62,786 nucleotides of DNA, from NCBI GenBank assembly GCA_964490075.1, contig CAZBBK010000008.1, positions 62,001 to 124,786 of the forward strand. The letters run 5' to 3'. The stretch's first letter is position 1; each line of letters opens with the position of its first letter. The position numbers and the translations under genes are program-made. This DNA comes from an uncultured Gemmatimonadota bacterium. Its GTDB lineage: Bacteria; GCA-2686955. Below the pieces are notes generated by a model. It was not told where the DNA came from and did not search any database. It was given only the letters and a program-made list of their open reading frames with translations. Of this stretch, positions 1 to 17,942 are shown piece after piece.

Positions 1-585
1 CACACACTGACGCCCATTAGCAAGGACCTTCAGCTTCCGGTCGTGGTTCTGCGCATGATCGACGAGCAAGGAACGGCCTGTCCCTTCCTCGGCGACGAGG
101 GTTGCACGGTGTACGAAGACCGCCCCTGGTCTTGTCGCATGTACCCTGTTGGGCTGGCGCTGCCGCCGGCGCGCGCCGGACTCGATCCCGAACCGATGTA
201 CTTCCTCTTCGAAGACAGTCACTGCGACGGCGGAACACAGCCCCAGAAATGGACGGTCGAAAGCTGGACCGAGAACCAGGGGATTCCGGAGCGGGAACGG
301 ATCGAGGAGGGCTTCCGTAAGCTCGTCTCGCATCCGTGGTTCATCGGTGGCAGACAGCTCGATCCTCGGCGCATGCAGATGTTCCACATGGCGTGCTACG
401 ACCTGGATGGCTTTCGCAGATTCGTATTCGACAGCACTTTCCTCGAGAGATTCGAGCTGGACCAAGCGCTCGTATCACAGCTTCGAGACGACGACGAGGC
501 GTTGCTGCGCTTCGCTTTCCGCTGGCTTCGATACGCACTTTTCGCTGAACCCACAATGAACCCGCACAAGAACGCGGAAACCTAG
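1..585 (+). CDS. YkgJ-family cysteine-cluster (putative Fe/Zn-chelating) protein, 5'-truncated by the window edge
   Basis: Frame is open from position 1; motif CPFLGDEGCTVYEDRPWSCRMYP is typical of YkgJ/CxxCxxCC proteins; directly upstream of qmoA. Confidence 0.8.
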   Translation, partial: HTLTPISKDLQLPVVVLRMIDEQGTACPFLGDEGCTVYEDRPWSCRMYPVGLALPPARAGLDPEPMYFLFEDSHCDGGTQPQKWTVESWTENQGIPERERIEEGFRKLVSHPWFIGGRQLDPRRMQMFHMACYDLDGFRRFVFDSTFLERFELDQALVSQLRDDDEALLRFAFRWLRYALFAEPTMNPHKNAET

Positions 586-649
586 CATTCGCCCATCCCC
601 GAGCGCTGCTTTCGAGAAGCTCACGGGGACCCGGCGAAGGGAGATTGCC

Positions 650-1906: not shown

Positions 1907-4158
1907 TGGAAAACGTCGGTGCATTCGTTTGCACGGGATGCGATATCGGTGAGGCGATCGACGTCGCGGAGCTCGAGGAGATCTGTGACGACGGCGGTGC
2001 CAAGACCTTCGTGACCCACGCCTGTCTCTGCTCGCCCGAGGGTGTGGCCGCGATCCAAGAGTCGGCGGAATCGGAAGGCTGCGACGGTCTGATGCTCGCG
2101 GCCTGCTCGGCCAGGTGCAAGAGGGCGGAGATCGGCTTCGACGACTCGGATCTGATCGTCGAGAGAGTGCCGCTCCGAGAGCAAGTGGTTTGGCCGCAGG
2201 AGCCGCAGCACGAAGACACGCAGATGCTGGCGGAGGACATGGTTCGCATGGGACTGGCCCGGATCTCGAAGCTCGGTCCGCCCCTTCCCATCGACGAGAC
2301 CATCGAGTCCGCGGTGCTGGTGCTCGGTGGCGGACTCGCAGGAATGAACGCGGCGTTGGCCGCGGCCGGAATGCATCATCCTGTGGTGTTGGTGGAGGAG
2401 AAGGAGGAGCTGGGCGGCTACCTTGCCGGGACCACCCACGTTGTGCCGGAGGCGCCTCCCTATGACGCTCCTCACCTGAATACGCTGCCGGGGCTGATTG
2501 CCGAAGTGCGCGCGGAGGAACGAATTCGGGTCTGCACGGGAACCACCGTGGAGCAGATATCCGGGCAGCCGGGTCAGTTCCAGGTGAGCCTGAAAGGCGA
2601 GGTCAGCGAGCAAGGGATCGGCATCGGAGCGATCGTTCAGGCAACGGGCGCGCTGCCATACGACGCATCCCGACTCACCGAGCTCGGCTACGCTGAATCG
2701 GCCGACGTCGTGACCACACACGAGATGGAGGCGATGCTCAAGAACGGCGGTGTGCGGCGCCCCTCGAACGGTGAGACACCGAGGCGCATCGTGTTCCTGC
2801 AGTGCGCCGGCTCCCGCGACGCGGCGCATCTGCCCTACTGCTCGTCGGAATGCTGCGCCACGACCTTGAAGCTCGTGTCGCGCCTGGGCGAGCTGTGCCC
2901 GGAATCAGAATCCGTTGTGGTGTACCGCGATATGCGGGCGCCGGGTCAGCTCGAGCACTTCTACGAGAGCGTCCAGGAGAACTCCGGATGCATTTTCACC
3001 CGGGGTGATGTGACCAGCGTCGGCAGCAACGGCAACGGGCGGATCGCGGTCGCCCTGCACGAGAGCCTGATCGGTCGCGACATGGTCCTCGACGCTGACC
3101 TGGTGGTGCTCGCAACGGGAATGGTCCCGCGCTCGGCCGACGGCGAGGCGATTCGCGCCTACCTGGACGCCAAGGCCCGTTCCGAGACCTCCGACTCGGA
3201 AGTGCAGAGGGCCGAGGCGGCGAAGGTGGCCGAGGGGCTAAAGGACCACGAAGGCACGGAGATCCTCAATCTGAGCTACCGCCAGGGACCGGACCTTCCG
3301 GTGCTCGGCTACAACTTCCCCGATTCGCACTACATCTGCTTCCCCTATGAGTCCCGCCGTACGGGCGTGTATGCAGCCGGCACGGTGCGGGCCCCGATGG
3401 ATGCCGCCCAGGCGGCGGAGGACGGCTGGGGCGCCGCCATGAAGGCCGTTCAGTGCATCGCGGCCAGCGAGCGTGGAGAGGCGGTCCATCCCCGCGCCGG
3501 CGATCGTTCGATAGCCGACTTCGCGCTGCAGCGATGCACTCAGTGCAAGCGCTGCACGGAGGAGTGCCCCTTCGGGACGCTGGACGAAGACGAGAAAGGC
3601 ACGCCCCAGTACAATGCACTGCGTTGTCGCCGTTGCGGAATCTGCCTCGGGGCATGCCCGGAGCGGATCATCTCCTTCCCGGAGTACACGGTCGACGCGG
3701 TGGCCAGCATGATCAAAGCCGTGGAGGTTCCGGATGAGGAGGACGAAAAACCCCGCATCCTGGCGTTCATGTGCGAGAACGATGCGCTGCCTGCCCTGGA
3801 GGAGGCGGCGAAGCGAGGCCTGAAGTGGAACCCGTGGATCCGCGTGATTCCGGTCCGATGCCTCGGCGCGGTCAACACCGTTTGGATCGCCGATTCGTTG
3901 TCGAGCGGATTCGACGGCGTGATGCTCTTCGGCTGCCGCCGCGGCGACGACTACCAATGCCACTACATCAAGGGCTCGGAGCTGGCCGCCGACCGCATGG
4001 GAAACGTCCAGGAGACACTCGATCGATTGGCCCTGGAATCCGAACGTCTGAAGGTCATCGAGATCGGCAGAGACGAGTTCCAGCGTGTGCCAGAGCTCTT
4101 CGAGGAGTTCGCGGAGACCATCGAGGAGGTCGGCCCCAATCCGTACAAGGACTTCTAG
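1903..4158 (+). CDS. qmoB: QmoB, HdrA-like with C-terminal MvhD-like domain
   Basis: N-terminal CTGC, GGGLAG FAD site, QCAGSRD, CTQCKRCTEECP and CRRCGICLGACP, C-terminal MvhD-like FMCEND..RCLG..GC..DYQCHY; ATGA overlap with qmoA. Confidence 0.93.
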   Translation: MMENVGAFVCTGCDIGEAIDVAELEEICDDGGAKTFVTHACLCSPEGVAAIQESAESEGCDGLMLAACSARCKRAEIGFDDSDLIVERVPLREQVVWPQEPQHEDTQMLAEDMVRMGLARISKLGPPLPIDETIESAVLVLGGGLAGMNAALAAAGMHHPVVLVEEKEELGGYLAGTTHVVPEAPPYDAPHLNTLPGLIAEVRAEERIRVCTGTTVEQISGQPGQFQVSLKGEVSEQGIGIGAIVQATGALPYDASRLTELGYAESADVVTTHEMEAMLKNGGVRRPSNGETPRRIVFLQCAGSRDAAHLPYCSSECCATTLKLVSRLGELCPESESVVVYRDMRAPGQLEHFYESVQENSGCIFTRGDVTSVGSNGNGRIAVALHESLIGRDMVLDADLVVLATGMVPRSADGEAIRAYLDAKARSETSDSEVQRAEAAKVAEGLKDHEGTEILNLSYRQGPDLPVLGYNFPDSHYICFPYESRRTGVYAAGTVRAPMDAAQAAEDGWGAAMKAVQCIAASERGEAVHPRAGDRSIADFALQRCTQCKRCTEECPFGTLDEDEKGTPQYNALRCRRCGICLGACPERIISFPEYTVDAVASMIKAVEVPDEEDEKPRILAFMCENDALPALEEAAKRGLKWNPWIRVIPVRCLGAVNTVWIADSLSSGFDGVMLFGCRRGDDYQCHYIKGSELAADRMGNVQETLDRLALESERLKVIEIGRDEFQRVPELFEEFAETIEEVGPNPYKDF

Positions 4159-4167
4159 GGGATCGCC

Positions 4168-5355
4168 ATGCCATCAACACCCACCCGTCCGGACTCCGAC
4201 GCCGATCCCGGGCGCATTCGCGAGCGCGGCGGTGAGAAGATCACCAAGTGCTGCCAATGCGGCACTTGCACCGCCGTCTGTGACTTGGCGACACCGGAAA
4301 CGTCGTTTCCCAGGCGGCAGGTTCAGCTGGCGCGTTGGGGACTGATGGCCGAGCTGGCCAGCGATCCAGCGATCTGGCTCTGCCACCAGTGCAACGATTG
4401 CACTCGGCGGTGTCCCAAAGACGCGCGGCCGGGCGATGTGTTGCAGGCGGTTCGCGCGACCGCGATCGAGACGCTCGCCGTGCCGCGCTTCATGGGGCGC
4501 CTGGTGGCCCGGGCCGAGGCGACCTGGCCGCTGCTTCTGGGAGTGCCAATCCTGTTCTTCGTGGTTCTATTGGCGCTCACGGGGCATCTGAACGTCCCGC
4601 AGGCACCTTTTCCCCTCGGCAGCTTCGCCTACGAGCTCTTCGTCCCCCACAACCTGATCTACGCGGTGTTCTTTCCGGCGGCGGGACTCGTGATGCTGGC
4701 AATGTGGAGCAGCGGTCGCCGTCTGTGGAGGCGCTTCGACGACGCCAAGCGGCGTCGTGGTTCGTTTCTGTCCAACCTCGTCCCGGTCGTGGTCGAGATC
4801 GCTACCCACGGTCGGTTCAGCGCTTGCGGTCCGTCCGAATCCCGAAAAGCGGGCCACCTGGCGCTGGTTTGGGGTTTCATCGGAGCGGCGGTAACCTCTG
4901 GTCTTCTGATCGTTGCGATCTATGTCATGGATGAGCCCATGCCCTTGCCCCTGGCGCACCCCTTCAAGCTCTTGGGAAATCTGTCGGCGCTCCTTCTTCT
5001 GGCCGGAGGATTTCTTCTGGTGCGCGGCAGGCTGGACCGCGATCCAAACTCCAGCGCATCCACTTCATTCGATCTGTTCTTTCTGTCGCTCGTGATCCTG
5101 GTGATCGTCACCGGGGTCTTGGCGGAGGCGGGGCGTTTCGCGTTTCCGAACGCCGTCAACTGCGCCGTCTATGTCGTTCATCTCGGCGCGGTTCTCAGTC
5201 TGTTTCTGACCTGTCCCTATTCGAAATTCTCTCACCTTTTGTATCGTACCTTGGCCATGGTCCATGAGCGCATGGTTCTGTCGCCATCAATAGAAGATCC
5301 CCAAACAGCGCCGTCGGAGGTCGTAGTGCCCGAGACGGTTGGAGTAACTACATGA
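4168..5355 (+). CDS. qmoC: QmoC, HdrC-like Fe-S domain plus membrane cytochrome b domain
   Basis: [11 protein letters not shown] and [12 protein letters not shown] followed by about 6 TM helices, HPFKLLGN and [11 protein letters not shown]. Confidence 0.9.
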
Positions 5356-6617
5356 GTATGTTGGTCAAGCCCCATGGTGGGCAAGATCTGCTGCCGCTGC
5401 TTCTCGATGATGCGGAGCGGGCTTCGGAGCTGGCTAAGGCCGAGGGCCTCAAGAAGGTCCCGATGACCACGAGGGAGACCTCGGACCTCATCATGATGGG
5501 AATCGGTGCGTTCACGCCCCTGACCGGCTTCATGGGGCACGACGACTGGAAGGGTTGCTGCAGCGAGTACACACTTCCCTCGATGAACGGGCTTTTCTGG
5601 CCAATTCCGATCACGCTCTCGGCCGCGCAGGGTCTGGCCGACTCGATCGGTATCGGTGAGGAGGTCGCGCTCGTCGACACCGAGACCGGAACCATCATGG
5701 GCACCATGAAGGTCACCGAGAAGTACACCATCGACCGGGCCTTCGAGTGCAAGCAGGTCTTCACGACCGACGACAGCGAGCATCCGGGCGTGGCCAAAGT
5801 GATGGAACAGGCCGACGTGAATCTGGCCGGCCCGGTCAAGGTGCTCTCCGAATCCTACTACCCCGACATGTTCAAGGAGATCTACCAGCGACCGGCGGAG
5901 GCGCGGGCGCTGTTCTCGGAGCGTGGCTGGAGCACCGTTGCGGCCCTGCAGCTGCGCAACCCGATGCACAACTCCCACGCCTATCTGGCCTGGATCGCCA
6001 ACGAGATCTGCGACGGCGTGTACATCCACCAGCTGGTCGGCAAGCTGAAGCCTGGCGACATCCCGGCTGATGTTCGTGTCCGAGCGATCGACGCCTTGGT
6101 GAAGAACTACTTCCGAGAAGAGCGCATCATTCAGGGCGGCTACCCGATGGAGATGCGCTACGCCGGGCCGCGCGAGGCTCTGCTGCACGCCGTGTTCCGG
6201 CAAAATTACGGCTGCAGCCACCTGATCGTCGGCCGCGACCACGCGGGCGTCGGGGACTACTACGGCCCCTTCGATGCGCAGAAGATCTTCCACGAGATCC
6301 CCAAGAACGCGCTGGACCTGCAGCCGCTGCCCCTCGACTGGACCTTCTATTGTTACGACTGCGAGACCATGGCCTCGATGAAGACCTGCCCGCACGATAG
6401 CAAGGCGGTCATCGACGACAACGGGCAGTACCAGGGCGGCTCCAGGCTGCTGCTCTCCGGAACCATGCTGCGCAAGCTCATGAGTGAGGGAAAGCCGGTG
6501 CCGAAGGAGTTCTCGAAGCCCGAGGTGGTGGCGATCCTCAAGGACTACTACGACAACCTCGAAGAGCGAGTGGAAATCAAGATGCACGGCGCCGCCACCG
6601 GCGACGTGAAGAAGTAA
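5352..6617 (+). CDS. sat: Sulfate adenylyltransferase (ATP sulfurylase, dissimilatory type)
   Basis: [44 protein letters not shown], CxxC..CPH Zn site, LSGT.LR. Confidence 0.97.
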
Positions 6618-6706
6618 CCAGGGCCGACGGATCTCCGTGGCGAGTGCCGGCTTCGAGACCGGCCTCGCTCCGGAGCCTGACGTCGAATGCACGATCGGGG
6701 ATCCTG

Positions 6707-7255
6707 ATGGCCGCGCAGAAGGTCTCGACAGATACCGTAGTGCGAGCAGTCCGCGAAGACATCACGCAGGTCGACGCCGACGCGTTCGTCTACCACGCCC
6801 AAGGGGATCTGGTTCTCGGAACCGGCTTCGGGAACGCCATAGCTCAGCGTGGCGGACCCTCCATCCAGGCCGAGCTGAATGAGCTGGGACCGTGCCAGAC
6901 CTGCGACGCCGTGATCACCAAGGCGGGCAATCTCAAGGCCAGCCACATCATTCACGCCGTCGGTCCGAGATTCCGCGAGGCGAACATCGAGGAGAAGGTC
7001 CGTCGGACCATCGCCAACGCGATGAAGGTCGCGGAGGAGAACGGGGTTCGCACGCTGGCTGTCCCCGCCTTGGGACGAGGATTCTACGGCGTTCCCCTTC
7101 CGGTCTCGGCCAAGAACACGGTGGCGGGTGTGCTGAACTACTTGCGGCAGGTTAGGTCGGGCCTCTCCGAGGTGCTCATCTGTGTGAACGATCGAAACGA
7201 GCTGGACGCGGTCGAGGCCGAGATCGCGCGAAGCGGCCCGCAAGAGGAGCGCTGA
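6707..7255 (+). CDS. Macro-domain protein with degenerate catalytic motif
   Basis: EDITQ..DA, AVITKAGNLKASHIIHAVGP and PALGRGFYG match the macro fold; canonical NAAN..GGGV is replaced by YHAQ..GTGFG. Start moved to ATG 6707. Confidence 0.85.
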   Translation: MAAQKVSTDTVVRAVREDITQVDADAFVYHAQGDLVLGTGFGNAIAQRGGPSIQAELNELGPCQTCDAVITKAGNLKASHIIHAVGPRFREANIEEKVRRTIANAMKVAEENGVRTLAVPALGRGFYGVPLPVSAKNTVAGVLNYLRQVRSGLSEVLICVNDRNELDAVEAEIARSGPQEER

Positions 7256-7258
7256 CCG

Positions 7259-7930
7259 ATGAGTGCAGCACTACATTTCTCCGAGCACACGCTGCAAGAG
7301 CTCGCGCTGGTGTTCATGGCGCTGGTTTACATCATTCGTCTGCGTTGGCTGTTTCGCTTCAAGGCGGGGCGGGAGCGCCAGGCGCCGACCGGTGCGTTGG
7401 ACACCACTCGGCCGCGAGGCGGGCGCTACTCCGTTGCCATCATCGCGATGCCCTGGGCGCTGGAGAGCTATCGCAAAAACCCTTGGATGTACCTTCAGTT
7501 CGTCGTGTTTCATCTGGGCGTGGTTGCCGCCATCGGATTGTCCTTCCTGATCCCCTACGCCCCCGGGATTCTCGCGAATCCGGCGATGGTCATGCTCATT
7601 CAGGTACTCACAGTGGCGGCGTTCTTCGTTTCCTGTATTCGCCTCTACCGCAGATTGAGCCAGCCGGTGATGCGCAAAATCAGCTCGCCCGACGACTATT
7701 TTTCGCTCGGCCTGCTAACCGTGTGGTTTCTATTCGCGTGTCTGTCGGCATCCAACTCTACCGCCAGGGGAGAAGGCGTTCTTCTCGCGTTCTTCATTCT
7801 CACGGCGTTTTTCCTGATCTACGTTCCATTCAGCAAGATATCCCACTACCTGTACTATCCCTTCACGCGTCTCTGGCTCGGCCGTTCCCTGGGCCACAGA
7901 GGCGTGTATCCGATGACCAAGGGAGCCTGA
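7259..7930 (+). CDS. NarI/TmcC/HmcE-like membrane cytochrome b subunit
   Basis: About 5 TM helices, FHLGV, RKISSPDDYFS, YVPFSKISHY; typical of the NarI/DsrM/TmcC family. Confidence 0.8.
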   Translation: MSAALHFSEHTLQELALVFMALVYIIRLRWLFRFKAGRERQAPTGALDTTRPRGGRYSVAIIAMPWALESYRKNPWMYLQFVVFHLGVVAAIGLSFLIPYAPGILANPAMVMLIQVLTVAAFFVSCIRLYRRLSQPVMRKISSPDDYFSLGLLTVWFLFACLSASNSTARGEGVLLAFFILTAFFLIYVPFSKISHYLYYPFTRLWLGRSLGHRGVYPMTKGA

Positions 7931-7985
7931 CGGAGCCACGAGCGGCGTAGCGCATCTGAAACCAAACGAAGAGCCCACTGACGGA

Positions 7986-9749
7986 GTGAAGGAAGTGCCG
8001 AGCGTGAAAACAGAAGAGAGATCGGAAAAGGCAGAACTCGTCATTCAGAGGTTGGGCGAAAAACTCAATCGACAGGTGGTGGGGTCTCTCGTTGCGTGCG
8101 TGCACTGCGGCATGTGCACCGAGGCATGTCACTACGTGCTCTCCAATCCGGAGGATCCCTCGCTGGCGCCGACGGTCAAAGCCGATCAGATCAGGCGGCT
8201 GTTCAAGCGGCATTTCGATTGGACGGGGCGGGTTTTTCCCTGGTGGGCGAAGGCAGGAAGCGTTGCCACGGAAGAAGACCTGGAAGCACTGAAAGACGTC
8301 GTTTTCGGCAAGTGCACCAACTGCCGCCGCTGCACCTTCAACTGTCCCATGGGGGTCGACTTCGCTACTCTGAACCGCATGGCTCGGGGTCTGTTGGTTT
8401 CTGTCGGCATCATGCCGGAAGGTGTGGCCGCGGTCAGTAAGGACCAATGGGAGATCGGCAATCAGATGGGAGTCCTGAAGGAGGACTACATCGAGACCAT
8501 CGAGTGGATGTCGGAGGAGCTCGTCGACGACGTCGAAGACGATGCGGCCGCGATCCCCATCGACAGGCCGGACTGCAAGATCATCTATACGATCAACCCC
8601 AGAGAGGTGAAGTACGATCCCCGCAGTATCGCCGATGCCGCCAAGATCTTCTACGCGGCGGGTGAGAGCTGGACGATGCCGAGCGAGGGTTGGGACATGA
8701 CCAACTTCGGCCTCTTCTCAGGCGATGATGATCTGGGCGGAACCGTCGCCAGGAGGCTCTACGAGAAGGCGGTGGAGCTCAGGGGCGAGACCGTGGTGAT
8801 GTCAGAGTGCGGACATGGTTATCGATCGACGCGCTGCGAAGGGCCGAACTGGGCCGGGATGGACATCCCCTTCGAGATGGAGAGCTCGGTCATCACCATG
8901 CTGCGCTACATCAAAGAAGGGCGTATCAAGGTCGACAGGAGCAAGAACACCGTCCCGGTTACCTTCCACGATTCCTGCAACAACGCGCGCAGCTGCGGTC
9001 TCACCGAGGAGCCGCGGGAGCTGCTCGACCTGGTGGTCACAGACTTCCGCGAGATGTACCCGAATCGCGCCGAGAACTACTGCTGCACCGGTGGCGGTGG
9101 CGCAATGTCGATGAGCGAGTACGCTTCGCGCCGCTTGGCCTCGGGAAAAGTGAAGGCCGATCAGCTGGCCGAGACGGGCGCAAAAATCGTCGTGACATCG
9201 TGCCACAACTGTGTTGATGGTCTGAGCGACGTGATCAAGCACTACAAGCTGGACATGGAGGTGACGCAGCTGGTGAACCTGGTCGCCAATGCGCTGGTGC
9301 TCGAGGAGAAGCCGGCGCCGGCGCCGGTGGAGCAGGCGCTGGCGGAAGCCGCGGAGACAACGGAGTTCAGCGGGCGCACGGTCCTGGTGGTGGATGACGA
9401 GCCAGACATCTGCACATTCCTGAGCGCGATTCTCGAGGATCACGGAGCGGAGGTGATCCAGGCGACCAGCGGGGAGGAAGCGCTGGGCGTGGCGAAGAAG
9501 CGGCGACCGGATCTGATTACGCTGGATCTGTCGATGCCTGGAATGGACGGCGGGCAAGTGTTCGAGGCGTTGAGGCATGACACCGATCTGGCATCGATTC
9601 CAGTCTGCGTCATTACCGGCAAGCCGGAGCTTCGGCGGGTCATCTACGAGAAAGACATCCTCCGTCCAGAGGGCTACCTGGACAAGCCGGTTGATGAGGA
9701 GACCTTCCTCACCAGTACGCGCAAAATCCTATTGCATGGCAAGGAGTGA
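7986..9749 (+). CDS. TmcB/DsrK/HdrD-like Fe-S CCG-domain protein fused to a C-terminal receiver domain
   Basis: CVHCGMCTEAC, CTNCRRCTFNCP, ECGHG, HDSC, YCCTGGGG, SCHNC; Pro/Ala/Glu linker; then VLVVDDE..DLITLDLSMPG..ITG..DKP. Exact GTG start uncertain (7986-8004). Confidence 0.88.
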   Translation: MKEVPSVKTEERSEKAELVIQRLGEKLNRQVVGSLVACVHCGMCTEACHYVLSNPEDPSLAPTVKADQIRRLFKRHFDWTGRVFPWWAKAGSVATEEDLEALKDVVFGKCTNCRRCTFNCPMGVDFATLNRMARGLLVSVGIMPEGVAAVSKDQWEIGNQMGVLKEDYIETIEWMSEELVDDVEDDAAAIPIDRPDCKIIYTINPREVKYDPRSIADAAKIFYAAGESWTMPSEGWDMTNFGLFSGDDDLGGTVARRLYEKAVELRGETVVMSECGHGYRSTRCEGPNWAGMDIPFEMESSVITMLRYIKEGRIKVDRSKNTVPVTFHDSCNNARSCGLTEEPRELLDLVVTDFREMYPNRAENYCCTGGGGAMSMSEYASRRLASGKVKADQLAETGAKIVVTSCHNCVDGLSDVIKHYKLDMEVTQLVNLVANALVLEEKPAPAPVEQALAEAAETTEFSGRTVLVVDDEPDICTFLSAILEDHGAEVIQATSGEEALGVAKKRRPDLITLDLSMPGMDGGQVFEALRHDTDLASIPVCVITGKPELRRVIYEKDILRPEGYLDKPVDEETFLTSTRKILLHGKE

Positions 9750-9752
9750 GCG

Positions 9753-11216
9753 GTGCCTGGCGAGTCAACCAAGGATCCAGGGGGGTATCGAGACTATTTC
9801 GATGCTTTGCCCTGCTACTTGACCGTTCAGGACCGCGATCTGCGGGTGATTCGAGCCAATCGGTTCTTTGAACAGGACTTCGGCAGACACGGCAATCGGC
9901 ACTGCTACGAACTCTTGAAGGGCAGCTCTGAAAGGTGTGATCTGTGTCCGGTGGCGGCCTCCTTCGAAGACGGCAGGCGACACCGAGTTGCAGAGGAAGT
10001 CAGGTGTCGCGACGGACGGTTGTTGACAGTGCTGGTCCATACCACGCCGATCACCGATGCCGAGGGGCAAGTGACTTCAGTGCTGCAAATGGGCACGGAT
10101 ATTACCAGCATGAGGCGTCTACAGGAGAGTTTGGCGGAGAGCCAGGAGCGGTATCGGCTGCTGTTCGGTTCCGTACCGTGCTACATCTCGATCCAGGATA
10201 GAGACCTGCGCATCCTGGAGGCGAACCGCCTATTCAAGGAGGAGTTCGGAGACGATATCGGAGCGAAGTGCTACGAGATCTACAAGCATAGAACCGAGCA
10301 ATGTGTGCCTTGTCCGGTGCAGGATACATTCCGAGATGGCAAGGTGCATCACAGCGAAGAGGCGGTGACTTCGCGATCCGGCCGGGAGATCAACACCATG
10401 GTCTACTCGGCGCCGATCGTCGATTCTGAAGGCGGAATCAAGTCGGTGATGGAGATGAGCGCGGACATTACGCCGATCCGCGAGCTGCAGTCGCAGCTGG
10501 AGTCGATTGGTCTGTTGATCAGCTCGGTTTCGCATGGCGTGAGAGGACTTCTGAACGGCCTGGACGGCGGCATGTACTTGCTGAAGACCGGTGTTTCGAA
10601 GGGCATCCGGAAGCGGCAGGATCAAGGCCTGGAAATGGTCCAGAGGAATGTCGACCGGATTCGCGGCATGGTCATGAACATCCTCTACTACGCAAAGGAG
10701 AGAACACCCAACTTAGAAGCCATCTCTGCCCGAGAGATCGCCGAAGAGGCGATTTCGGTCATCGAAGGCCAGGCAGAGCAGCTCGCCATTGGGTTGAAAC
10801 TGGAAATCGCCGATGCGGCCGGGGAGTTCCAGGCCGATCGACAGGCTGTGCGCTCGTTGCTCATCAATCTCTTGGAGAATGGTCTGGACGCATGCCGAGT
10901 CAAGGCTGGAGAGAGAGCGGGCGAAGTGGGACTGGTGGTGCGAGATGAGGGCGGTCGGGTCACCTTCGAAGTCTCCGACAATGGCATCGGCATGGACAGA
11001 GAGACGAAAGAGAAGGCATTTGGCCTCTTCTTCACGTCAAAGGGAGTGAAGGGGACAGGCCTGGGGCTCTTCATCGCGAACAAAATCGCGATGGCGCACG
11101 GTGGGGAGGTCGAGCTGGAGTCCGAGGAGGGACAAGGAACACGAATCACCGTAGTAATCCCCCGCTCGTCCGTCGAGAAGAAGGGCGAGCAGGAACGGCA
11201 TGGGTCTTCGCCATGA
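9753..11216 (+). CDS. Cytoplasmic sensor histidine kinase with two Cys-rich PAS domains
   Basis: Two PAS repeats (PCY...CY-x9-CxxCP), H-box VSHGVRG, N-box NLLENG, DNGIGM, FFTSK, GTGLGL; no TM segment. Confidence 0.92.
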   Translation: MPGESTKDPGGYRDYFDALPCYLTVQDRDLRVIRANRFFEQDFGRHGNRHCYELLKGSSERCDLCPVAASFEDGRRHRVAEEVRCRDGRLLTVLVHTTPITDAEGQVTSVLQMGTDITSMRRLQESLAESQERYRLLFGSVPCYISIQDRDLRILEANRLFKEEFGDDIGAKCYEIYKHRTEQCVPCPVQDTFRDGKVHHSEEAVTSRSGREINTMVYSAPIVDSEGGIKSVMEMSADITPIRELQSQLESIGLLISSVSHGVRGLLNGLDGGMYLLKTGVSKGIRKRQDQGLEMVQRNVDRIRGMVMNILYYAKERTPNLEAISAREIAEEAISVIEGQAEQLAIGLKLEIADAAGEFQADRQAVRSLLINLLENGLDACRVKAGERAGEVGLVVRDEGGRVTFEVSDNGIGMDRETKEKAFGLFFTSKGVKGTGLGLFIANKIAMAHGGEVELESEEGQGTRITVVIPRSSVEKKGEQERHGSSP

Positions 11217-11241
11217 GTGGCGGAAAGGCAGGCTGCAGGCA

Positions 11242-11631
11242 ATGGCAGATATGAAGACGGTCCTGATCGTGGACGACGAGCCGGACACAAGGACCTTCCT
11301 CCAGGTTCTGCTGGAGGACAATGGCTATGCCACGATTCTAGCAGGAGACGGCAACCAGGCGATCGAGAAGGTCAAGGAAGAAGCCCCTGACCTGATTTCT
11401 CTGGACATCACGATGCCGGAGAAGAGCGGAGTGAGGTTTTACCGCGAGATGAAGGAGAGCTCCGCGTGGGGCGCCATCCCGATCATCATCGTTACAGGAA
11501 TTTCAGGCGATTTCGAGCGCTTCATATCGACGCGACGCAAGGTACCGCCGCCCGACGGCTACATTTCCAAGCCGGTGGACAAGGCGAGTTTTCTCGATCT
11601 GGTCGCAAAACTGACGGAACGCCGAGGATGA
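11242..11631 (+). CDS. Single-domain response regulator (receiver only)
   Basis: VLIVDDE, DLISLDITMP, VTG, SKP; no output domain. Confidence 0.92.
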   Translation: MADMKTVLIVDDEPDTRTFLQVLLEDNGYATILAGDGNQAIEKVKEEAPDLISLDITMPEKSGVRFYREMKESSAWGAIPIIIVTGISGDFERFISTRRKVPPPDGYISKPVDKASFLDLVAKLTERRG

Positions 11632-11707
11632 AGGAGTACGGGGGAAGTCTCAACCTACCAACGCCTGGCAGAAAAGGCGGCTGTCACGCGGATCGGAAAG
11701 AAGCACT

Positions 11708-12664
11708 ATGATGGCACAGCTTCCCTACATTGCCGTCTATCTGGCAGCGGGGGCCTTTGTGGTCGCTGTGGTCGCGCGAGTTCTCATGTGGTCCAGGATG
11801 CCTTTGCATCTGCGCTGGGAGCTGTACCCGGTCGCTCATGAGGGGTCGCGGGCTCACTATGGTGGGTCCTACCTGGAAGAGGTGGATTGGTGGAAGAAGC
11901 CGAGGGAGGTCTCCTTGCTGGGGGAGCTCAAGGTCATGCTTCCGGAGATTTTGTTTCTGGTGGCGCTCAAGGAGCACAACAGGAAGCTCTGGCTACGCTC
12001 TTTTCCTTTCCATTTCGGCATCTACTTGTGCATTGTCTCGCTCCTCGCCATGTTCGGCGCCGGCGTCTTGACCGCGCTCTTGCCCGCGGCCATAGAGGGG
12101 AGTTTGGGCGCGGCAATCCAACAAGTGGCGCGAATCACCGCGATCGCGGGCCTCGGCCTTGGGATCCTGGGCGCGCTGGGATTGCTGCAGCGACGTCTGA
12201 GCGCGTCGGAGCTGAGGGAGTTCACGGCCGGCGCAGATCTGTTCAACCTTGCCTTCTTCGTGGTCGCCTTCGGGACCGGTCTGCTCAGCGTGATCTTATT
12301 CGATCCGGAGTTCTCTGGATCGATGGCCTTCTTTGCAAATCTAGTGCGGGGCAATATCGAACCGACTGCGGCCACAGGTCTCGGCGCCGTTCTGCCGACG
12401 CTTTCGGTGGTTCTGCTCAGCGCTCTGGTGATCTACATCCCGTTGACCCACATGTCGCATTTCGTCGGCAAGTTTTTCGCCTATCACCAGATCCGCTGGG
12501 CCGACAAGCCGAACCTCAGCGGTGGACCGGAGGAGAAGGCGATCAACCAGAACTTGCAGCGTAAGGTCAGCTGGGCAGCGCCTCACATCGAGGGCAAAGG
12601 CAGCAAGACATGGGCGGACCTCGCTACGGAGCTTCCGTCCGCCGAGCAGAAGGAAAAGAAGTGA
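11708..12664 (+). CDS. dsrM: DsrM-like membrane cytochrome b (NarI/HdrE family)
   Basis: MPLHLRWELYPVAHE..YGGSY, FPFHFGIY, YIPLTHMSHF; multiple TM helices; coupled to a dsrK-like gene. Orthology to true DsrM is not proven. Confidence 0.75.
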   Translation: MMAQLPYIAVYLAAGAFVVAVVARVLMWSRMPLHLRWELYPVAHEGSRAHYGGSYLEEVDWWKKPREVSLLGELKVMLPEILFLVALKEHNRKLWLRSFPFHFGIYLCIVSLLAMFGAGVLTALLPAAIEGSLGAAIQQVARITAIAGLGLGILGALGLLQRRLSASELREFTAGADLFNLAFFVVAFGTGLLSVILFDPEFSGSMAFFANLVRGNIEPTAATGLGAVLPTLSVVLLSALVIYIPLTHMSHFVGKFFAYHQIRWADKPNLSGGPEEKAINQNLQRKVSWAAPHIEGKGSKTWADLATELPSAEQKEKK

Positions 12665-14262
12665 AATCCGGCACGCGCCTTGATGACATATCCAAGGGTC
12701 ATGGACCGATCGGACATCTCGACCTCGAAGCCCAAGCGCCGCTTCCTCCCCCCTTCGACAAGCTCGAGGAGGAGCCGCCCTTCTCGCCTCTGACCGAGAA
12801 GGCGCTCGAGCGATTCGAGCAGTTGGATGATACGATAGCCGTTAGCATTCCGAAACCGACCAGCAAAGAGGAGGAGGACCGGCTGGTCGGGTTGTTTCTG
12901 AGCGGATTGAAGAGGTGTTTCAGCGAAGACGACAACTGGACGTTTTTGCAGCCGCTGGTGCTCTCGATGGAGCACTGCGCCAAGTGTCAGACCTGCAACG
13001 AAGCCTGCCACATCTACGAGGAGAGCGGACGCAATCCGCTGTACCGTCCAACCTATCGGTCAGAGGTGTTGCGGAGAATCTACCATAAGTACATCCGCGG
13101 TGGTTCGCCATGGGTTCGCGGAGACGTGGATTTGAACTGGAAGACCGTCGCTCGACTGATCGAGCTGTCTTTTCGCTGCAATGTCTGCCGGCGCTGCGCT
13201 CAAACTTGTCCTATCGGCGTAGACAATGCGTTGCTGGCGCGGGAGATCCGCAAGATCGCCAGCCAGGAGATGGGCATCACCGCCAACGAGCTGCACCAGG
13301 ATGGCTCGGTGCTGCAGCTGAGGGTCGGCTCATCGACCGGCATGAACGCTCTGGTGTTCAAGGACAACATGGAATTCATCGACGAGGACACGTCGGAGAA
13401 GACCGGAGTCGACGTCGCAACGCCGATCGACCAGGAGGGCGCGGATATCCTCCTGATTCACAATGCCGGCGAGATCATGTCCTGGCCCGAAAACGTGGGC
13501 GCCTTCTCACTCCTGTTCAACAGGGCGGGCCTGAGTTGGACGATGTCGAGCGAGCTCGCCGCCTACGACAGCATCAACTATGGTGTCTGGTACGACGATG
13601 TCCAATTCGCCAGAACGGCGTTGCTCCACGCTCAAGCAGCGAAGAACCTGGGCGTCAAGAAGATCGTTCTCGGGGAGTGCGGCCACGCGCACAAGGCGCT
13701 AACCGTCATCGCGGACAAGGTGCTGACCGGCGAACTGAACATCCCGCGAGAAAGCTGCATGCCCCTGCTGCGCGACATCGTGAAGTCGGGCAAGATCGAG
13801 TTCGACAAGAGCCGAAACAGCTTTCCCGTAACGCTGCACGACCCCTGCAACTATGTACGGCTGATGGGCATCGTGAGCCCGCAGCGAGAAGTCATCGACG
13901 AGATCGTTCCGGAAGGTCGGTTCAGGGAAATGGCGCCGAACGGCGTTGAGAACTACTGCTGCGGAGGAGGATCAGGCTTCGCGATCATGAGCGCCCATAA
14001 CTTCACCGATTGGCGCCATCGCGTGTCGGGGCGACGCAAGTTCCGGCAGGTTCTGGAGGCCTTTCGGGGTGAGACCATGGACGTCGATCACCCGAAGTAC
14101 CTCTGCGCTCCCTGCAGCAACTGCAAGGGCCAATTGAGAGACATCATCACCTACTACGATGCCTGGGAGAAGGCGGGTATCTACTACAGCGGCCTGGTCG
14201 AGTTGATCGTCAACGCGATGGTCGATGTTAATCCAGGCTTCATAGATTGGGAATGGCACTGA
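12661..14262 (+). CDS. dsrK: DsrK-like Fe-S/CCG catalytic subunit
   Basis: CAKCQTCNEAC, CNVCRRCAQTCP, GECGHAHK, HDPCN, YCCGGGSG, APCSNC; GTG start overlaps the dsrM stop (GTGA). Confidence 0.8.
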   Translation: MKSGTRLDDISKGHGPIGHLDLEAQAPLPPPFDKLEEEPPFSPLTEKALERFEQLDDTIAVSIPKPTSKEEEDRLVGLFLSGLKRCFSEDDNWTFLQPLVLSMEHCAKCQTCNEACHIYEESGRNPLYRPTYRSEVLRRIYHKYIRGGSPWVRGDVDLNWKTVARLIELSFRCNVCRRCAQTCPIGVDNALLAREIRKIASQEMGITANELHQDGSVLQLRVGSSTGMNALVFKDNMEFIDEDTSEKTGVDVATPIDQEGADILLIHNAGEIMSWPENVGAFSLLFNRAGLSWTMSSELAAYDSINYGVWYDDVQFARTALLHAQAAKNLGVKKIVLGECGHAHKALTVIADKVLTGELNIPRESCMPLLRDIVKSGKIEFDKSRNSFPVTLHDPCNYVRLMGIVSPQREVIDEIVPEGRFREMAPNGVENYCCGGGSGFAIMSAHNFTDWRHRVSGRRKFRQVLEAFRGETMDVDHPKYLCAPCSNCKGQLRDIITYYDAWEKAGIYYSGLVELIVNAMVDVNPGFIDWEWH

Positions 14263-14270
14263 GCGACGCA

Positions 14271-15140
14271 ATGGATCCAATTCGAGTACTGCTGGTCGAC
14301 GACGAGATCGATTTCGCGGAAGCCTTGGCCATGCGATTGGAGGCAGCCGGCTACGACGCCCGTGCCGTGGACAGCGGTGCGGATGCGCTGGAGCTTTTGG
14401 CAACGACCGACATGGACGTGGTTCTCCTCGATCTGGTGATGCCGGGATTGAGCGGAATCGACGTATTGCGGAGAATCAAGGATGACTGGCCCCTGATCGA
14501 AGTACTGCTCTTGACCGGAAAGGGTGCGGAGAAGGAGGCGATCGAGGCCATGCGCAGGGGCGCGTACGATTTCCTCGTGAAGCCTCCTGAGTTCGAGGGC
14601 GTGAAGGCGAGGATAGAAGGAGCGTTCGTCAGGGTTCAGAAACAGCGCGAGCGGATCGCGAAGGCCCAGGAAGCGAGCGGGATTGGTGCGCAGGTCGAAG
14701 CGACCGAGGAAGCTGGCGCCGAAGATGGCGTCAGAGAGGGCCGCGAGACCGGCAGGCTTCTGGCGGTGAGCACCCAAGCCGAGTTCTCGGGACAGCTGAT
14801 CGACTACGCTCTCGACATGGCGCAGAGAATCTCGGCCGAGGTGATTGCCTTGAACGCGGCGGGAATAGCGACCGACACGTTCGACGCCTTCCCGACGGCG
14901 AAACAACGTGTGTTGGCCGACTACCAGTCACTCTGCAAAGAGTCGATCGGGGAGTTCCGTCGTCAAGCCGACGAGCGAGAGATCCCATTTCATCACATCG
15001 TGAAGCCGAACGACGTCGCCGAGGCGATCCACGAGATCCAGGCGGAGATCGGGCAGGTCGACTTCGTGCTGTCTACCTCTACTGATGACGCGATGATCGA
15101 AAGCTCCAAGCCTACGATATTGGTATACTCACCGACTTGA
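14271..15140 (+). CDS. Receiver domain fused to a universal-stress-protein-like C-terminal domain
   Basis: VLLVDDE..VVLLDLVMPG..LLTG..VKP; C-terminal LLAVS..LIDYALDMAQRISAEVIALN..FHHIVK..VDFVLS resembles the USP fold. Confidence 0.75.
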   Translation: MDPIRVLLVDDEIDFAEALAMRLEAAGYDARAVDSGADALELLATTDMDVVLLDLVMPGLSGIDVLRRIKDDWPLIEVLLLTGKGAEKEAIEAMRRGAYDFLVKPPEFEGVKARIEGAFVRVQKQRERIAKAQEASGIGAQVEATEEAGAEDGVREGRETGRLLAVSTQAEFSGQLIDYALDMAQRISAEVIALNAAGIATDTFDAFPTAKQRVLADYQSLCKESIGEFRRQADEREIPFHHIVKPNDVAEAIHEIQAEIGQVDFVLSTSTDDAMIESSKPTILVYSPT

Positions 15141-15153
15141 TGAGAGTCACCAA

Positions 15154-15237
15154 ATGGACTCGACCTTCATCTATAGATGCGTGCTGGTTTTGGCGGTATT
15201 CGGCCTGTGCTTTCTCTTTCGCAGAGAGCATCGCTGA
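15154..15237 (+). CDS. Putative 27-aa single-TM small protein (MDSTFIYRCVLVLAVFGLCFLFRREHR)
   Basis: ATG preceded by GAGAG; hydrophobic core and basic C-terminus; fills the gap before the permease; below the ORF-track size cutoff. Confidence 0.4.
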   Translation: MDSTFIYRCVLVLAVFGLCFLFRREHR

Positions 15238-15264
15238 GGATCCAACGGAGAGGTTGTTGGTCAG

Positions 15265-17076
15265 ATGACTCCTGACATGATCTTGACGATGCTGGTCCTG
15301 GTCTGCGTAATCCTCGTTTTCGTATTCGAGTGGGTGCGCGTGGACGTGGTCGGGATCACGATGATGGTGCTGCTGCCCCTGATCGGGTTGATATCACCCG
15401 GCGATGCATTCGTTGGCCTCAGCAGCAACGCCGTGTGTTCGATCATCGCGGTCATCATCATCGGCGCGGGGCTCGACAAGACCGGAGTCATGAACCAGCT
15501 CGCAGCGCCGATCATTCGATTGGCCGGGGAAAGCGAGAAGAGAATCGTCATTCTGATCTCCGGAACCGTCGGCGTCATCTCGAGCATGATGCAGAATATC
15601 GGCGCGGCGGCGCTCTTCTTGCCCGCGGCGCAGCGGATTGGCAAGCGAGTCGGAGTGCCGGTCTCGCGGATCCTGATGCCGATGGGGTTTTGCGCGATCA
15701 TCGGCGGGACATTGACGCTGGTGGGAGCGAGCCCGACGATTCTGCTCAACGATCTCATGATCCTCGAAGGGCAGAAGCTGGAGCCCTTCGGGCTCTTTAC
15801 GCAAACCCCTATCGGTATCTGCCTTCTGGCGACCGCGATTCTTTACTTCGTGGTGCTGGGGCGGTTCATTCTGCCCGCCTCCGATGGCGAGGTGGATCGA
15901 GGCATCACCGCTTCGATTTCGGAGACCTACCAGCCCCTGGCCAAGACTTACGAGCTGCACATCCCAGAGGACTTCGGGGAGACTCGGACGCTGGCCGAGC
16001 TCGAAATCCGCACCGGGTTCCTGGTCACAGTGATCGGAATCAACCACGCGAGCCTGGGCCGCAAGAACATGGTCCCGCGCAGATACGATGCGATCTCTGG
16101 TGGGGATGATGTCGCCGTGGTGGGAGGGGAGAAGCAGGTTCGGGCGTTGGCGCAGGAGAAGGGGTGGATTCTGCGCGAAGATCTGGAGGTGTTCAGCGAA
16201 CACCTGTCGCGAATGAGCTCGGGAATGACGGAGACGGTCGTCGCCCATCGATCGGAGCTGATCGGCAAGACCTTGAACGAAGTCAATTTCAAAGAGGACT
16301 TCAGGGTGAACCCGCTCGCACTGATGAAGGGCAACCGCATCTACTACACGGGACTGGGGCACATCAAACTGCAGGTGGGAGATACTCTGCTGCTACAAGG
16401 AGGCTGGGGGCAATTTCATCGGCTGAAGAACTTGCCGCAACCGCGAGCTCTCACCTTCTCGACACCCCTGGAGGGAGAGATCCTGCGCCCGGGCAAGGCC
16501 CGGCTGGCGGTCTTCTGGCTGCTGCTCGCGCTCGCCCAGATCATCTTCTTCAAGGTGCAGCTCTCCGTTGCCTTGATGTCGGGCGCATTGGGCATGATCA
16601 TCACCGGAGTGCTGACGATCGATGAAGCCTATCGATCGGTCGATTGGATGACGGTGTTTCTCTTGGCCGGTCTGATCCCTCTGGGGATTGCGTTTGAGCA
16701 ATCGGGCACCGCAGCGTTCATCGCCCATTGGGTTCTGGGGTTGGTGGGGGAGCCCTCGCCGATCGTTCTGTTGGGTGTCGTTGGATTAATGACATCTTTC
16801 TTCACCTTGGTGGTGTCGAATGTCGGAGCAACAGTGTTGCTGGTACCGCTGTGTATGAATATGGCGGTGATGGCGGGAGGTGACCCACGGATGGCGGCAT
16901 TGGTGGTTGGGCTCTCGGCGTCGAATACCTTCGTGCTGCCGACTCACCAGGTAAACGCGCTGGTGATGAGGCCGGGGCGCTACCGCACGCTGGACTACGC
17001 GAAGGCTGGTGCGGGCATGACGGTGCTCTTCTTGGCTGTAGAACTCACGGTGCTCTACCTGTTCTACGGCGTCTGA
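15265..17076 (+). CDS. SLC13/DASS-family permease with TrkA-C domains (candidate sulfate or dicarboxylate transporter)
   Basis: RVDVVG, GLDKTG, MQNIGAAALFLP, GGTLTLVGASPTILL, central soluble domains, SNVGATVLL, PTHQVNALV. Confidence 0.9.
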   Translation: MTPDMILTMLVLVCVILVFVFEWVRVDVVGITMMVLLPLIGLISPGDAFVGLSSNAVCSIIAVIIIGAGLDKTGVMNQLAAPIIRLAGESEKRIVILISGTVGVISSMMQNIGAAALFLPAAQRIGKRVGVPVSRILMPMGFCAIIGGTLTLVGASPTILLNDLMILEGQKLEPFGLFTQTPIGICLLATAILYFVVLGRFILPASDGEVDRGITASISETYQPLAKTYELHIPEDFGETRTLAELEIRTGFLVTVIGINHASLGRKNMVPRRYDAISGGDDVAVVGGEKQVRALAQEKGWILREDLEVFSEHLSRMSSGMTETVVAHRSELIGKTLNEVNFKEDFRVNPLALMKGNRIYYTGLGHIKLQVGDTLLLQGGWGQFHRLKNLPQPRALTFSTPLEGEILRPGKARLAVFWLLLALAQIIFFKVQLSVALMSGALGMIITGVLTIDEAYRSVDWMTVFLLAGLIPLGIAFEQSGTAAFIAHWVLGLVGEPSPIVLLGVVGLMTSFFTLVVSNVGATVLLVPLCMNMAVMAGGDPRMAALVVGLSASNTFVLPTHQVNALVMRPGRYRTLDYAKAGAGMTVLFLAVELTVLYLFYGV

Positions 17077-17085
17077 ACCAGGCGG

Positions 17086-17889
17086 CTAGGCTACGAGCAG
17101 AGCGCTGACCCTGACGGCATCAAGCGGACGATGAGAGGCGGAAGCGTCGGAGCTCTGGTCGATGAGGCCCTTCACGACCTGCTCGGCCGAATCTTGTGCC
17201 TCGGCCGCATCCTGGAACGTCGACGGATCCCAGGGCAAGGTGGAGGTGGCGGCCTCGATGTTGGATCTGGCTACCTCGGCCGCGTGGCGGGCCGGCGCGA
17301 GTTGCTTCCTCGCAAACTGGGAGAGCTGCGCTCGCATGGAGCGAATCGCGTGCAGCGCCCGTTCCGAGGCCGCCACGCTGGTTCGGGCGCTGCCGATGCT
17401 GTCGAGGGCAAGATCGCCCTCCACCTCTCTCGCGACCGACCGCAGATCACGGGGCGGAAACTCGATCGTTCCGCGTGCGGTCTCGATCGACACGCGGGGC
17501 TGATCCGAGCGGGAATCGGCGGCGAGATCGCGCATGTAGCGCATGAGCTCGTGGACGCGGGCCTGGACCTCTGCGCGGCTCCAGATGTCTTTGACGCTGG
17601 TCTCCCCGGACCGCGCAGCCAGTGCCCGCAGTTCTTCGAGAGCGCCGGACATCTTGCGCGCGGAATGGCCGACTCGGGCGGTTTCCCGTGCAGCGCCTTC
17701 GAGCTCCTCGATCTCCGCGTCGTGGGCCACGAAATCGTTGGTGAGCCGTGCCTCGAACGAGAGCGGCGTGGTCTCGAACGGCTTTGGCGCGGACGTGGCG
17801 GTGACGTCGCGGGTCAGGCCGCGGAGCTCTCTGGGACTCCATATCTGTGTGGGGGGGCGGATGTTCCCCGCGGATTCAAGTGGGTTCAT
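17086..17889 (-). CDS. Divergent flagellin-like helical protein
   Basis: LEELRALAARS..RAEVQARVHEL resembles the flagellin N-D1 helix; ALHAIRSMRAQL..NIEAATS..QDAAEA..VSALL resembles the C-terminal D1/D0 region. AGGAG RBS favours ATG 17889. Confidence 0.55.
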   Translation of the reverse strand: MNPLESAGNIRPPTQIWSPRELRGLTRDVTATSAPKPFETTPLSFEARLTNDFVAHDAEIEELEGAARETARVGHSARKMSGALEELRALAARSGETSVKDIWSRAEVQARVHELMRYMRDLAADSRSDQPRVSIETARGTIEFPPRDLRSVAREVEGDLALDSIGSARTSVAASERALHAIRSMRAQLSQFARKQLAPARHAAEVARSNIEAATSTLPWDPSTFQDAAEAQDSAEQVVKGLIDQSSDASASHRPLDAVRVSALLVA

Positions 17890-17926
17890 GACCATCTCCT
17901 AATGCCCCAAGTCATTCAAGGAGATT

Positions 17927-17942
17927 TGCAATTGCCGTGCCA
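17927..17942 (-). promoter_or_regulatory. sigma54 (-24/-12) promoter of the flagellin-like gene
   Basis: Minus strand reads TGGCACGGCAATTGCA, matching consensus TGGCAC-N5-TTGCA. Confidence 0.85.

Follow-up and report, generated by a model that had tools for sequence, protein, structure and literature searches.

We analysed a 62,786-nucleotide stretch of DNA from an uncultured Gemmatimonadota bacterium (G000:C8:62001-124786, hereafter the window), which is part of a metagenome-assembled genome (MAG) of 5.7 Mb that is 95% complete. Calling of open reading frames (ORFs) reveals a string of uninterrupted genes on the + strand that spans positions 43-17076 with gaps of at most 124 nt. The string encodes, in this order, a CxxCxxCC-like protein, QmoABC, the sulfate adenylyltransferase Sat, a macro-domain protein, a cytochrome b, an iron-sulfur (Fe-S) protein with a CCG motif that is fused to a receiver domain (CCG-REC), a histidine kinase, a free receiver (REC), a DsrM/DsrK-like pair, a receiver with an additional C-terminal domain and a CitMHS/DASS transporter. 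Here we describe a conserved cassette within this string that reaches from the macro-domain protein to the free receiver. It consists of the following features:

6644-7255, + strand: macro-domain protein, first gene of the cassette (PF01661, 89 bits, cut-off 22)
7259-7930, + strand: candidate TmcC/HmcE-like membrane cytochrome b (about five hydrophobic segments)
7986-9305, + strand: TmcB/HmcF-like cytoplasmic Fe-S domain of CCG-REC (two CX2CX2CX3C motifs, a cysteine within SECGH, and a CCG motif of five Cys that reads CCT)
9306-9374, + strand: Pro/Ala-rich variable linker of CCG-REC (mean column identity 0.24; pLDDT below 50 at residues 443-458)
9375-9749, + strand: fused receiver of CCG-REC, intact (PF00072, 74.8 bits)
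9753-11216, + strand: soluble histidine kinase with two PAS domains (PAS_4, PAS_9; HATPase_c, 85.6 bits)
11200-11631, + strand: single-domain receiver, Response_reg alone (PF00072, 75.7 bits)

The macro protein probably starts at the methionine at 6707 and the free receiver probably near 11242.

Relatives of the fused protein were found in at least 578 stretches of a collection that holds one genome per species. We kept 80 of these loci, all from MAGs and encoding relatives at 69-80% identity, and scored their neighbouring genes by ORF calling and comparison to the proteins of the window. The loci carry at least nine phylum labels (Planctomycetota, Acidobacteriota, Gemmatimonadota, Zixibacteria, Calditrichota, Ignavibacteria, Fibrobacteraceae, Thermodesulfobacteriota/Deltaproteobacteria, Myxococcota and others). 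We observed that the conserved unit comprises the macro protein, the cytochrome b, CCG-REC, the kinase and usually the free receiver; the remainder of the string is particular to the lineage of the window. Cytochrome b and macro protein are both present in 67 of the 68 loci with at least 1600 nt of upstream sequence, and the free receiver is found in 38 of the 54 fused loci that have 2600 nt or more of downstream sequence. Furthermore, the fusion and the kinase co-vary. The kinase is present in 62 of the 63 fused loci for which 1700 nt or more of downstream sequence is available, whereas it is missing beside five of the six unfused close homologues. In the sixth locus (L018:10001-11721, from a Pirellulales MAG), the receiver is encoded by an ORF of its own directly after the CCG part of an otherwise 77% identical protein, which represents either a frameshift or a natural split.

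An earlier note on this DNA had proposed that the seven genes from the cytochrome b to the third receiver form one system, and had suggested a search for their order in other genomes. When this search was run, the five-gene core was found to be conserved, whereas the full order was recovered in none of the 80 loci, and the seven-gene system is thus not upheld. A homologue of the DsrK-like protein (DsrK2, at least 50% identity) occurs in 11 of the loci, directly after the receiver in seven and on the opposite strand in four. Full-length homologues of the third receiver protein are absent from all 80, as every match stops by residue 147. Genes for Qmo or Sat are present in three loci and a relative of the DASS transporter in two. 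The DsrM/DsrK-like pair is thus a variable neighbour outside the core. At the other end, the cassette begins one gene further 5', with the macro protein, so that the proposed unit has to be shortened on one side and extended on the other.

The fused protein (7986-9749) has the class features of TmcB, HmcF and DsrK, which, according to PMC10861901, share one CCG motif and a T/GECGH cysteine. In CCG-REC, these features are the cysteines C38/41/44/48 and C110/113/116/120, C275 within SECGH, and C331, C366, C367, C406 and C409. In the comparison of 120 fused homologues, 15 of the 16 listed cysteines were found in all proteins and Cys409 in 119. The cluster ligands and the SECGH cysteine are thus retained as expected for a working catalytic site. 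Across the same 120 proteins, the mean column identity is 0.76-0.83 for the catalytic part, 0.63 for the receiver and 0.24 for the 23-residue linker. The closest 119 non-self clusters have 72-80% identity to the fused protein and contain both the CCG part and Response_reg in all cases. Among the NCBIfam families, HmcF (NF045711) scores best with 320.5 bits, followed by TmcB (NF045724) with 310 and DsrK (NF045796) with 231.8 bits. The fused receiver is conserved in its functional residues: D470, D471, D514 and K567 are invariant and T544 is nearly so (59 sequences). Its best response-regulator family is DVU0259_DivK (NF045717; 79.5 bits, cut-off 160), and the nearest folds are those of DivK, RR468 and Spo0F.

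The HisKA match of the kinase is weak (22.1 bits), and its H-box histidine, His261, is invariant in the 66 relatives. Its PAS domains each have a conserved four-Cys pattern, with cysteines (C51, C62 and C65 in the first domain; C143, C173, C184 and C187 in the second) that are present in 64-65 of the 66 sequences, with a further cysteine, C21, in 49 of them. Kinases with Fe-S clusters in PAS domains exist, and by analogy the PC...C...CxxC pattern suggests a metal or Fe-S site. The free receiver also scores best with DVU0259_DivK (98.2 bits, below the cut-off of 160). It contains the acid pocket, the acceptor aspartate, the threonine and the lysine of a working receiver (D25, D26, D69, T99, K124), as does the third receiver of the string (D18, D19, D62, T90, K112). 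The hallmarks of a two-component system are thus present, with the H-box histidine and the ATPase domain in the kinase and the acid pocket, Asp, Thr and Lys in all three receivers. The description in the earlier note of a kinase, three intact receivers and two cytochrome b/CCG pairs in one string with qmoABC and sat is borne out, as all of these are uninterrupted ORFs of the + strand. We also agree that a two-component system without a DNA-binding output is built into genes of the Tmc/DsrMK type. Pfam detected no helix-turn-helix (HTH) domain in any of the three receivers, and no HTH or other DNA-binding family in the cassette proteins. The label of a phosphorelay has to be replaced. Since Pfam found neither an Hpt domain nor a hybrid kinase in the string, and the kinase itself carries no fused receiver, the system is a branched two-component system and not a phosphorelay.

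Which receivers belong to this kinase can be judged from their relatedness. The free and the fused receiver are 39% identical over 114 aa. Within the genome they are reciprocal best matches, in comparisons with 43 and 34 receiver-like stretches, with 90.5 bits compared to 71.6 and 70.5 bits for the next ones, which is the usual sign of a shared kinase specificity. Judging by this similarity, the kinase probably serves two receivers, the fused and the free one, and not three. The third receiver follows a second pair of electron-transfer genes:

11708-12664, + strand: DsrM-like/NarI-like cytochrome b (DsrM, 33.6 bits; about six hydrophobic segments)
12610-14262, + strand: DsrK-like CCG protein (DsrK, NF045796, 321.5 bits, cut-off 400; GECGH and CCG motifs)
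14247-15140, + strand: NtrC/FixJ-like receiver (Response_reg) with an alpha/beta domain at its C-terminus that weakly resembles USP

An alternative model, also taken from the earlier note, is that the kinase drives all three receivers and in this way either directs electrons to one or the other of the Tmc-like and DsrMK-like pairs, or turns the pathway around. In the window, all of these genes are contiguous and on one strand. In two of 12 loci with a canonical TmcB (L123 and L124, described below), genes for DsrM2, DsrK2, a kinase and a receiver lie beside tmcBC. The third receiver nevertheless shares only 45-48 bits with the other two and has better paralogues elsewhere, on contig C20, with up to 99.8 bits. 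Receivers that are most similar to it adjoin a second, different kinase in three loci (L029, L062 and L074). A choice of one kinase with three receivers between two complexes is unlikely, because the DsrMK-like pair is rarely adjacent, the USP-like receiver protein is not conserved at the cassette and its receiver has better paralogues elsewhere; the full model, with all three receivers driven by this kinase, appears very improbable to us. From these sequence comparisons, the third receiver probably lies outside the targets of the cassette kinase.

The third receiver protein had been described as a fusion to a USP-like domain. Its receiver is indeed intact, whereas the USP label is weak: the C-terminal domain matches Pfam Usp (PF00582) with E 0.005 and 17.8 bits, below the cut-off of 24 (Atlas feature score 0.90), and among the members of the family 7 of 44 match Usp and 13 of 44 match CoA_binding_2. 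The model of the protein (pLDDT 87) has a Rossmann-like b-a-b-a-b-a-b-b order. In fold searches with the whole model (Foldseek, VIA-align), the matches were all to the receiver part, with the receivers of NtrC1, NtrX and FixJ. The protein family is small, with about 43 full-length clusters of 38-49% identity.

We next consider the two genes that precede the fused protein. In the macro protein, the glycine-rich loops and the HAVGP and GxYG elements are conserved, whereas the positions of the NAAN type and of the following aspartate are not (51-71 homologues). The protein of the window has YHAQ...GTGFGN where TTHA0132 has NAAN...GAGVAG. Hydrolases of the MacroD type use a catalytic asparagine and an aspartate within their NAAN...GGGVD motifs. 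An identity as a MacroD-type hydrolase was therefore rejected, as these catalytic positions are not conserved, and the NCBIfam deacetylase models all score below their cut-offs on this protein. Since the glycine loops are kept and the NAAN-type and Asp positions are lost, we read the macro protein as a putative nucleotide binder rather than a MacroD-type hydrolase. Longer fused forms of the macro protein were not found at E 1e-20, which is weak evidence. Neither an ADP-ribosyltransferase nor a sirtuin was found when 25 representatives from the 40 most frequent clusters of neighbouring genes were scanned with Pfam. In the cytochrome b, His85 and His196 are found in all 76 sequences compared, and His6 and His10 are kept in about 62 of them. 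The two cytochrome b candidates of the string have about five and about six hydrophobic segments, with none in the kinase, the macro protein, the two CCG proteins or the receivers. No CxxCH motif occurs in the 16 proteins of the string, and Pfam and NCBIfam scans of the string detected no cytochrome c family.

The genomic context connects the cassette to sulfur metabolism. Immediately upstream of the window, the + strand carries aprBA, and the - strand carries dsrAB, a DsrL-like gene, a dsrN-like gene, dsrC, dsrMKJOP and cysG; the region is thus the last part of a complete dissimilatory sulfur island. Further genes of the string are the following:

650-1906, + strand: qmoA (Pfam/NCBIfam)
1903-4158, + strand: qmoB (Pfam/NCBIfam)
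4168-5355, + strand: qmoC (QmoC, 367.7 bits, cut-off 300)
5352-6617, + strand: sat, sulfate adenylyltransferase (474.3 bits, cut-off 387)
15265-17076, + strand: CitMHS/DASS anion transporter with TrkA_C, last gene of the string (PF03600, 249.7 bits; PF02080, 54.7 bits)

The true DsrK of this genome scores 734.4 bits and is encoded within dsrMKJOP, elsewhere on the contig than the two CCG proteins of the string, which are paralogues below the DsrK cut-off of 400 bits. Between aprA and qmoA, a small CxxCxxCC-like protein is encoded (43-585; PF03692, 22.2 bits, cut-off 23), relatives of which are present in L015, L057 and L067. On the 3' side of the string, the opposite strand encodes ClpP, a MgsA-type ATPase and CarAB, which are unrelated genes. 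Of the five species genomes of the window's phylum in the collection, two (G000 and G200) encode the fused protein. We surveyed dsrB in 50 of the 80 carrier genomes, which were picked for their long flanks. A dsrB above the cut-off was found in 48 of these 50; in one further carrier dsrB is cut by the contig end, and one (G039) has no dsrB and contains aprA. The flanks of loci L006-L085 also contain dsrAB, dsrC, dsrN and DsrL-like genes in subsets.

To relate the cassette to known systems, we compared it to five groups of proteins. The first is TmcABCD of Desulfovibrio vulgaris. Similar to Tmc, the cassette combines a cytochrome b with an Fe-S subunit that has one CCG motif, and both receivers of the cassette score best with the DVU0259_DivK family. 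It differs from Tmc in that it lacks a TmcA-type cytochrome c (no CxxCH motif), in that a receiver is fused to the Fe-S subunit, and in that the macro gene is constant. Furthermore, the cassette is mostly found outside the classical lineages of sulfate reducers and scores far below the family cut-offs. According to PMC4215793, Tmc is important in hydrogen oxidation, and DsrC is suggested there as a partner of Tmc.

The earlier note had stated that kinase, receiver and USP genes are also found near the tmc locus of Desulfovibrio, and we find support for this. We sampled 151 genomes from the phylum of a carrier labelled Thermodesulfobacteriota, among which 18 encode a true TmcB above the cut-off, and fetched about 9 kb on each side of 12 TmcB genes. 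In four of these 12 canonical loci (L114, L118, L123 and L124), a kinase and a receiver lie beside tmcBC, and the kinases beside the canonical tmcBC contain the same Cys-PAS motif, repeated. L123 and L124 also contain dsrM2-dsrK2 that are 54-55% identical to those of the window, followed by a receiver and a kinase that is 40% identical over its full length. The macro gene is absent from all 12 canonical loci. A separate arrangement was observed in three genomes (L119, L120 and L125), which have a second gene for a canonical TmcB about 3.6 kb from the first, with scores of about 800 bits for both, followed by a QmoB/HdrA-like gene. In PMC5109826, response regulators, USP proteins and kinases are reported beside tmc and hmc in Desulfococcus multivorans, 'resembling' Desulfovibrio vulgaris. 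Because of the kinases and receivers beside canonical tmcBC and this report, we conclude that the signalling set has long accompanied modules of the Tmc type. The new elements in the cassette are the fusion itself, the lack of a cytochrome c subunit, the constant macro partner and the spread outside classical sulfate reducers.

The second group is HmcE and HmcF. These are the best-scoring NCBIfam families for the cytochrome b and the Fe-S protein, and genes of the Rrf2 family occur in 14 of the 80 cassette loci; in contrast to Hmc, the cassette has no subunits of the HmcABCD type. The hmc operon ends with rrf1 and rrf2, with hmcF and rrf1 adjacent. We found no receiver on the same strand after hmcF in 12 HmcF-type loci with flanks of 1.5 kb.

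The third group is DsrMK of the DsrMKJOP complex. It shares with the cassette the cytochrome b with a CCG protein, the two cubane motifs, the single CCG motif with an extra cysteine, and the occurrence in dsrAB genomes. The difference lies in the DsrK scores, which are 231.8 bits for the fused protein and 321.5 bits for the second pair compared to a cut-off of 400. [quoted passage not shown] By analogy, the chemistry of the cassette is likely the same as that of DsrMK.

The fourth group is EtfD, a protein that transfers electrons from the electron-transfer flavoprotein to menaquinone. The EtfD of Mycobacterium smegmatis (PDB 9ojn) is the sole solved chain detected by sequence (47.7 bits) and is closest to the Fe-S part. 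It is also the top fold match of CCG-REC, with a TM score of 0.46 on the query over 475 columns and 19% identity. Both proteins have an Fe-S and CCG architecture that is tied to a membrane haem domain; EtfD differs in being a single fused polypeptide and in having no receiver, kinase or macro partner.

The fifth group comprises receivers that are fused to enzymes, such as CheB, PleD and PorX, whose outputs are methylesterase, cyclase or phosphodiesterase domains. As in these proteins, the receiver of the cassette is tethered to a catalytic domain, which would place phosphorylation on an activity and not on DNA binding. The cassette differs in that its putative output would be a respiratory Fe-S subunit, a kind of output for which the literature search returned no example. 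Our literature search found no paper that joins a DsrK, TmcB, HmcF or HdrD protein with a receiver domain, with subscription journals and supplements outside its coverage.

Taken at face value, the fusion and the adjoining kinase suggest that the signalling targets electron flow itself and not gene expression. We propose that the cassette encodes a quinol-linked reductase of the DsrC type that is gated by phosphorylation, a reading to which we give not quite an even chance. Electrons would pass between the menaquinone pool and a DsrC-type thiol/trisulfide carrier in the cytoplasm by way of the cytochrome b and the CCG protein, in the manner of DsrMK. With a metal or Fe-S site in the PAS domains, the kinase would sense the redox state, O2 or sulfide, and it would phosphorylate Asp514 of the tethered receiver. 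The phosphorylated receiver could then alter the activity of the enzyme, its oligomeric state or its binding to a partner. The free receiver would be a competitor for these phosphoryl groups, acting either as their sink or by forming a second branch, and the macro protein may read an ADP-ribose-like nucleotide without hydrolysing it. A wider proposal is that of a post-translational valve on dissimilatory sulfur metabolism, in which phosphorylation of the receiver opens or closes the path from quinol to the DsrC-type carrier, the macro protein adds an ADP-ribose-like input, and the cassette has spread with dsr/apr islands through many uncultured phyla. We consider this possible and put it forward tentatively. 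What we observed directly are the gene content and the intact motifs, how well these are conserved, the joint presence and absence of fusion and kinase, and the association with dissimilatory sulfur genes; the functional steps are inferred.

The membrane and CCG module might instead serve as a sensor or scaffold, in which the redox state of the module, set by the quinone pool or by a thiol carrier, tunes the contact between the tethered receiver and the kinase, and in which the output is the free receiver, acting like DivK on targets elsewhere. Both receivers score best in the DVU0259_DivK family, the folds nearest to the fused receiver are single-domain regulators, and no output domain is encoded in the cassette. 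Furthermore, the genome already encodes a full DsrMKJOP, so that an extra reductase is not obviously needed. This explanation has difficulty with the cluster ligands and the SECGH cysteine, which are kept in 119-120 of 120 homologues, and with the catalytic part being more conserved than the receiver. The free receiver is moreover absent from 16 of the 54 fused loci, which is odd for a sole output. We therefore regard a sensor or scaffold role as unlikely.

A further possibility is that the main partner of the kinase is a DNA-binding regulator elsewhere in the genome, with the fused and free receivers acting as phosphate sinks or in feedback, so that control would be mostly transcriptional. 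Several kinases and receivers are clustered in canonical tmc loci, and in PMC5109826, the neighbouring regulators are termed DNA-binding. The genome of the window contains at least 43 receiver-like stretches, and regulator genes are found near the cassette in a minority of loci; in addition to the Rrf2 genes mentioned above, these are HTH_17/MerR (17 of 80), MerR_1 (12 of 80) and sigma-54 activators. A DNA-binding receiver conserved beside the cassette was found in none of the 80 loci. The presence of the kinase in 62 of 63 fused compared to one of six unfused loci, and the two receivers near the kinase being mutual best paralogues, also argue against a distant main partner, which we consider quite unlikely.

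Returning to the phosphorylation-gated reductase, several observations weigh against it. The 80 loci are mutually related, so that their counts are not independent events. The scores lie far below the curated cut-offs, both for the fused protein (TmcB, 310 compared to 735 bits; HmcF, 320.5 compared to 750) and for the cytochrome b candidate (HmcE, NF045716, 56.6 compared to 275; TmcC, NF045723, 53.1 compared to 240). Because of this shortfall, the substrate of the cassette may differ from that of Tmc or Hmc. A dihaem protein of the NarI type requires four histidines, and merely two are invariant in the cytochrome b. The free receiver is missing from the 16 fused loci noted above, and the regulator genes near the cassette make a transcriptional layer possible. 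Lastly, the link to sulfur genes is looser in Planctomycetota. In a sample of 301 genomes of this phylum, which includes the centre genome that was chosen for having both genes, four encode a full-length fused match (G005, G258, G485 and G291) and seven encode dsrB, with both present in just G005 and G485. G258 contains none of dsrA, dsrB and aprA. G291 and the unfused carrier G217 contain aprA and have no match to dsrA or dsrB. The incompleteness of MAGs may be a partial cause of the missing sulfur genes. We conclude that the cassette is neither required by all dsrAB organisms nor strictly limited to them.

The reduction of sulfite or sulfate in newly recognised phyla with dsrAB is known from gene lists only, and how flux through the last, energy-conserving step is controlled is unexplained in model sulfate reducers as well. 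The presence of kinase, receiver and USP genes near tmc has been noted before and never explained. The receiver that is fused to a catalytic subunit provides a Rosetta-stone link between the signalling set and the enzyme, and the constant macro partner adds a nucleotide link that is likewise unexplained. If the proposed gating is true, the cassette would be a rare case of two-component control of an electron-transport complex rather than of transcription.

We also scanned for promoters and terminators. In the window, no sigma-54 promoter was found at the cassette, where the gap between sat and the macro gene is 26 nt, and promoter and terminator scans of the window yielded nothing exceeding shuffles. 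The three sigma-54 consensus sites in the window equal the chance expectation. In 66 other loci, the best -24/-12 scores 5' of the macro gene were no higher than those of a control stretch inside tmcB. In nine of these 66 loci (including L013, L040, L058, L072, L073 and L078), YGGCAY-N5-xTGC sites that match at 8 of 10 positions cluster between -284 and -329, counted from the first macro residue in the alignment. A search for RNA data listed no RNA run, and four DNA runs from one marine-metagenome study. One site in the window is a perfect sigma-54 -24/-12 consensus, TGGCACGGCAATTGC, at 17928-17942 on the - strand. It lies 33 nt 5' of a - strand ORF (17086-17895) that encodes 269 aa and has no Pfam family.

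Further DsrK-like and DsrC-like genes are present elsewhere in the genome of the window. On a second contig (G000:C11:63666-66841; L002, L092 and L093), a further DsrK-like gene with 352 bits is flanked by DsrC-like genes, including one open frame of 249 aa with two DsrC-like stretches. Overall, the genome contains five matches of the DsrC/TusE type.

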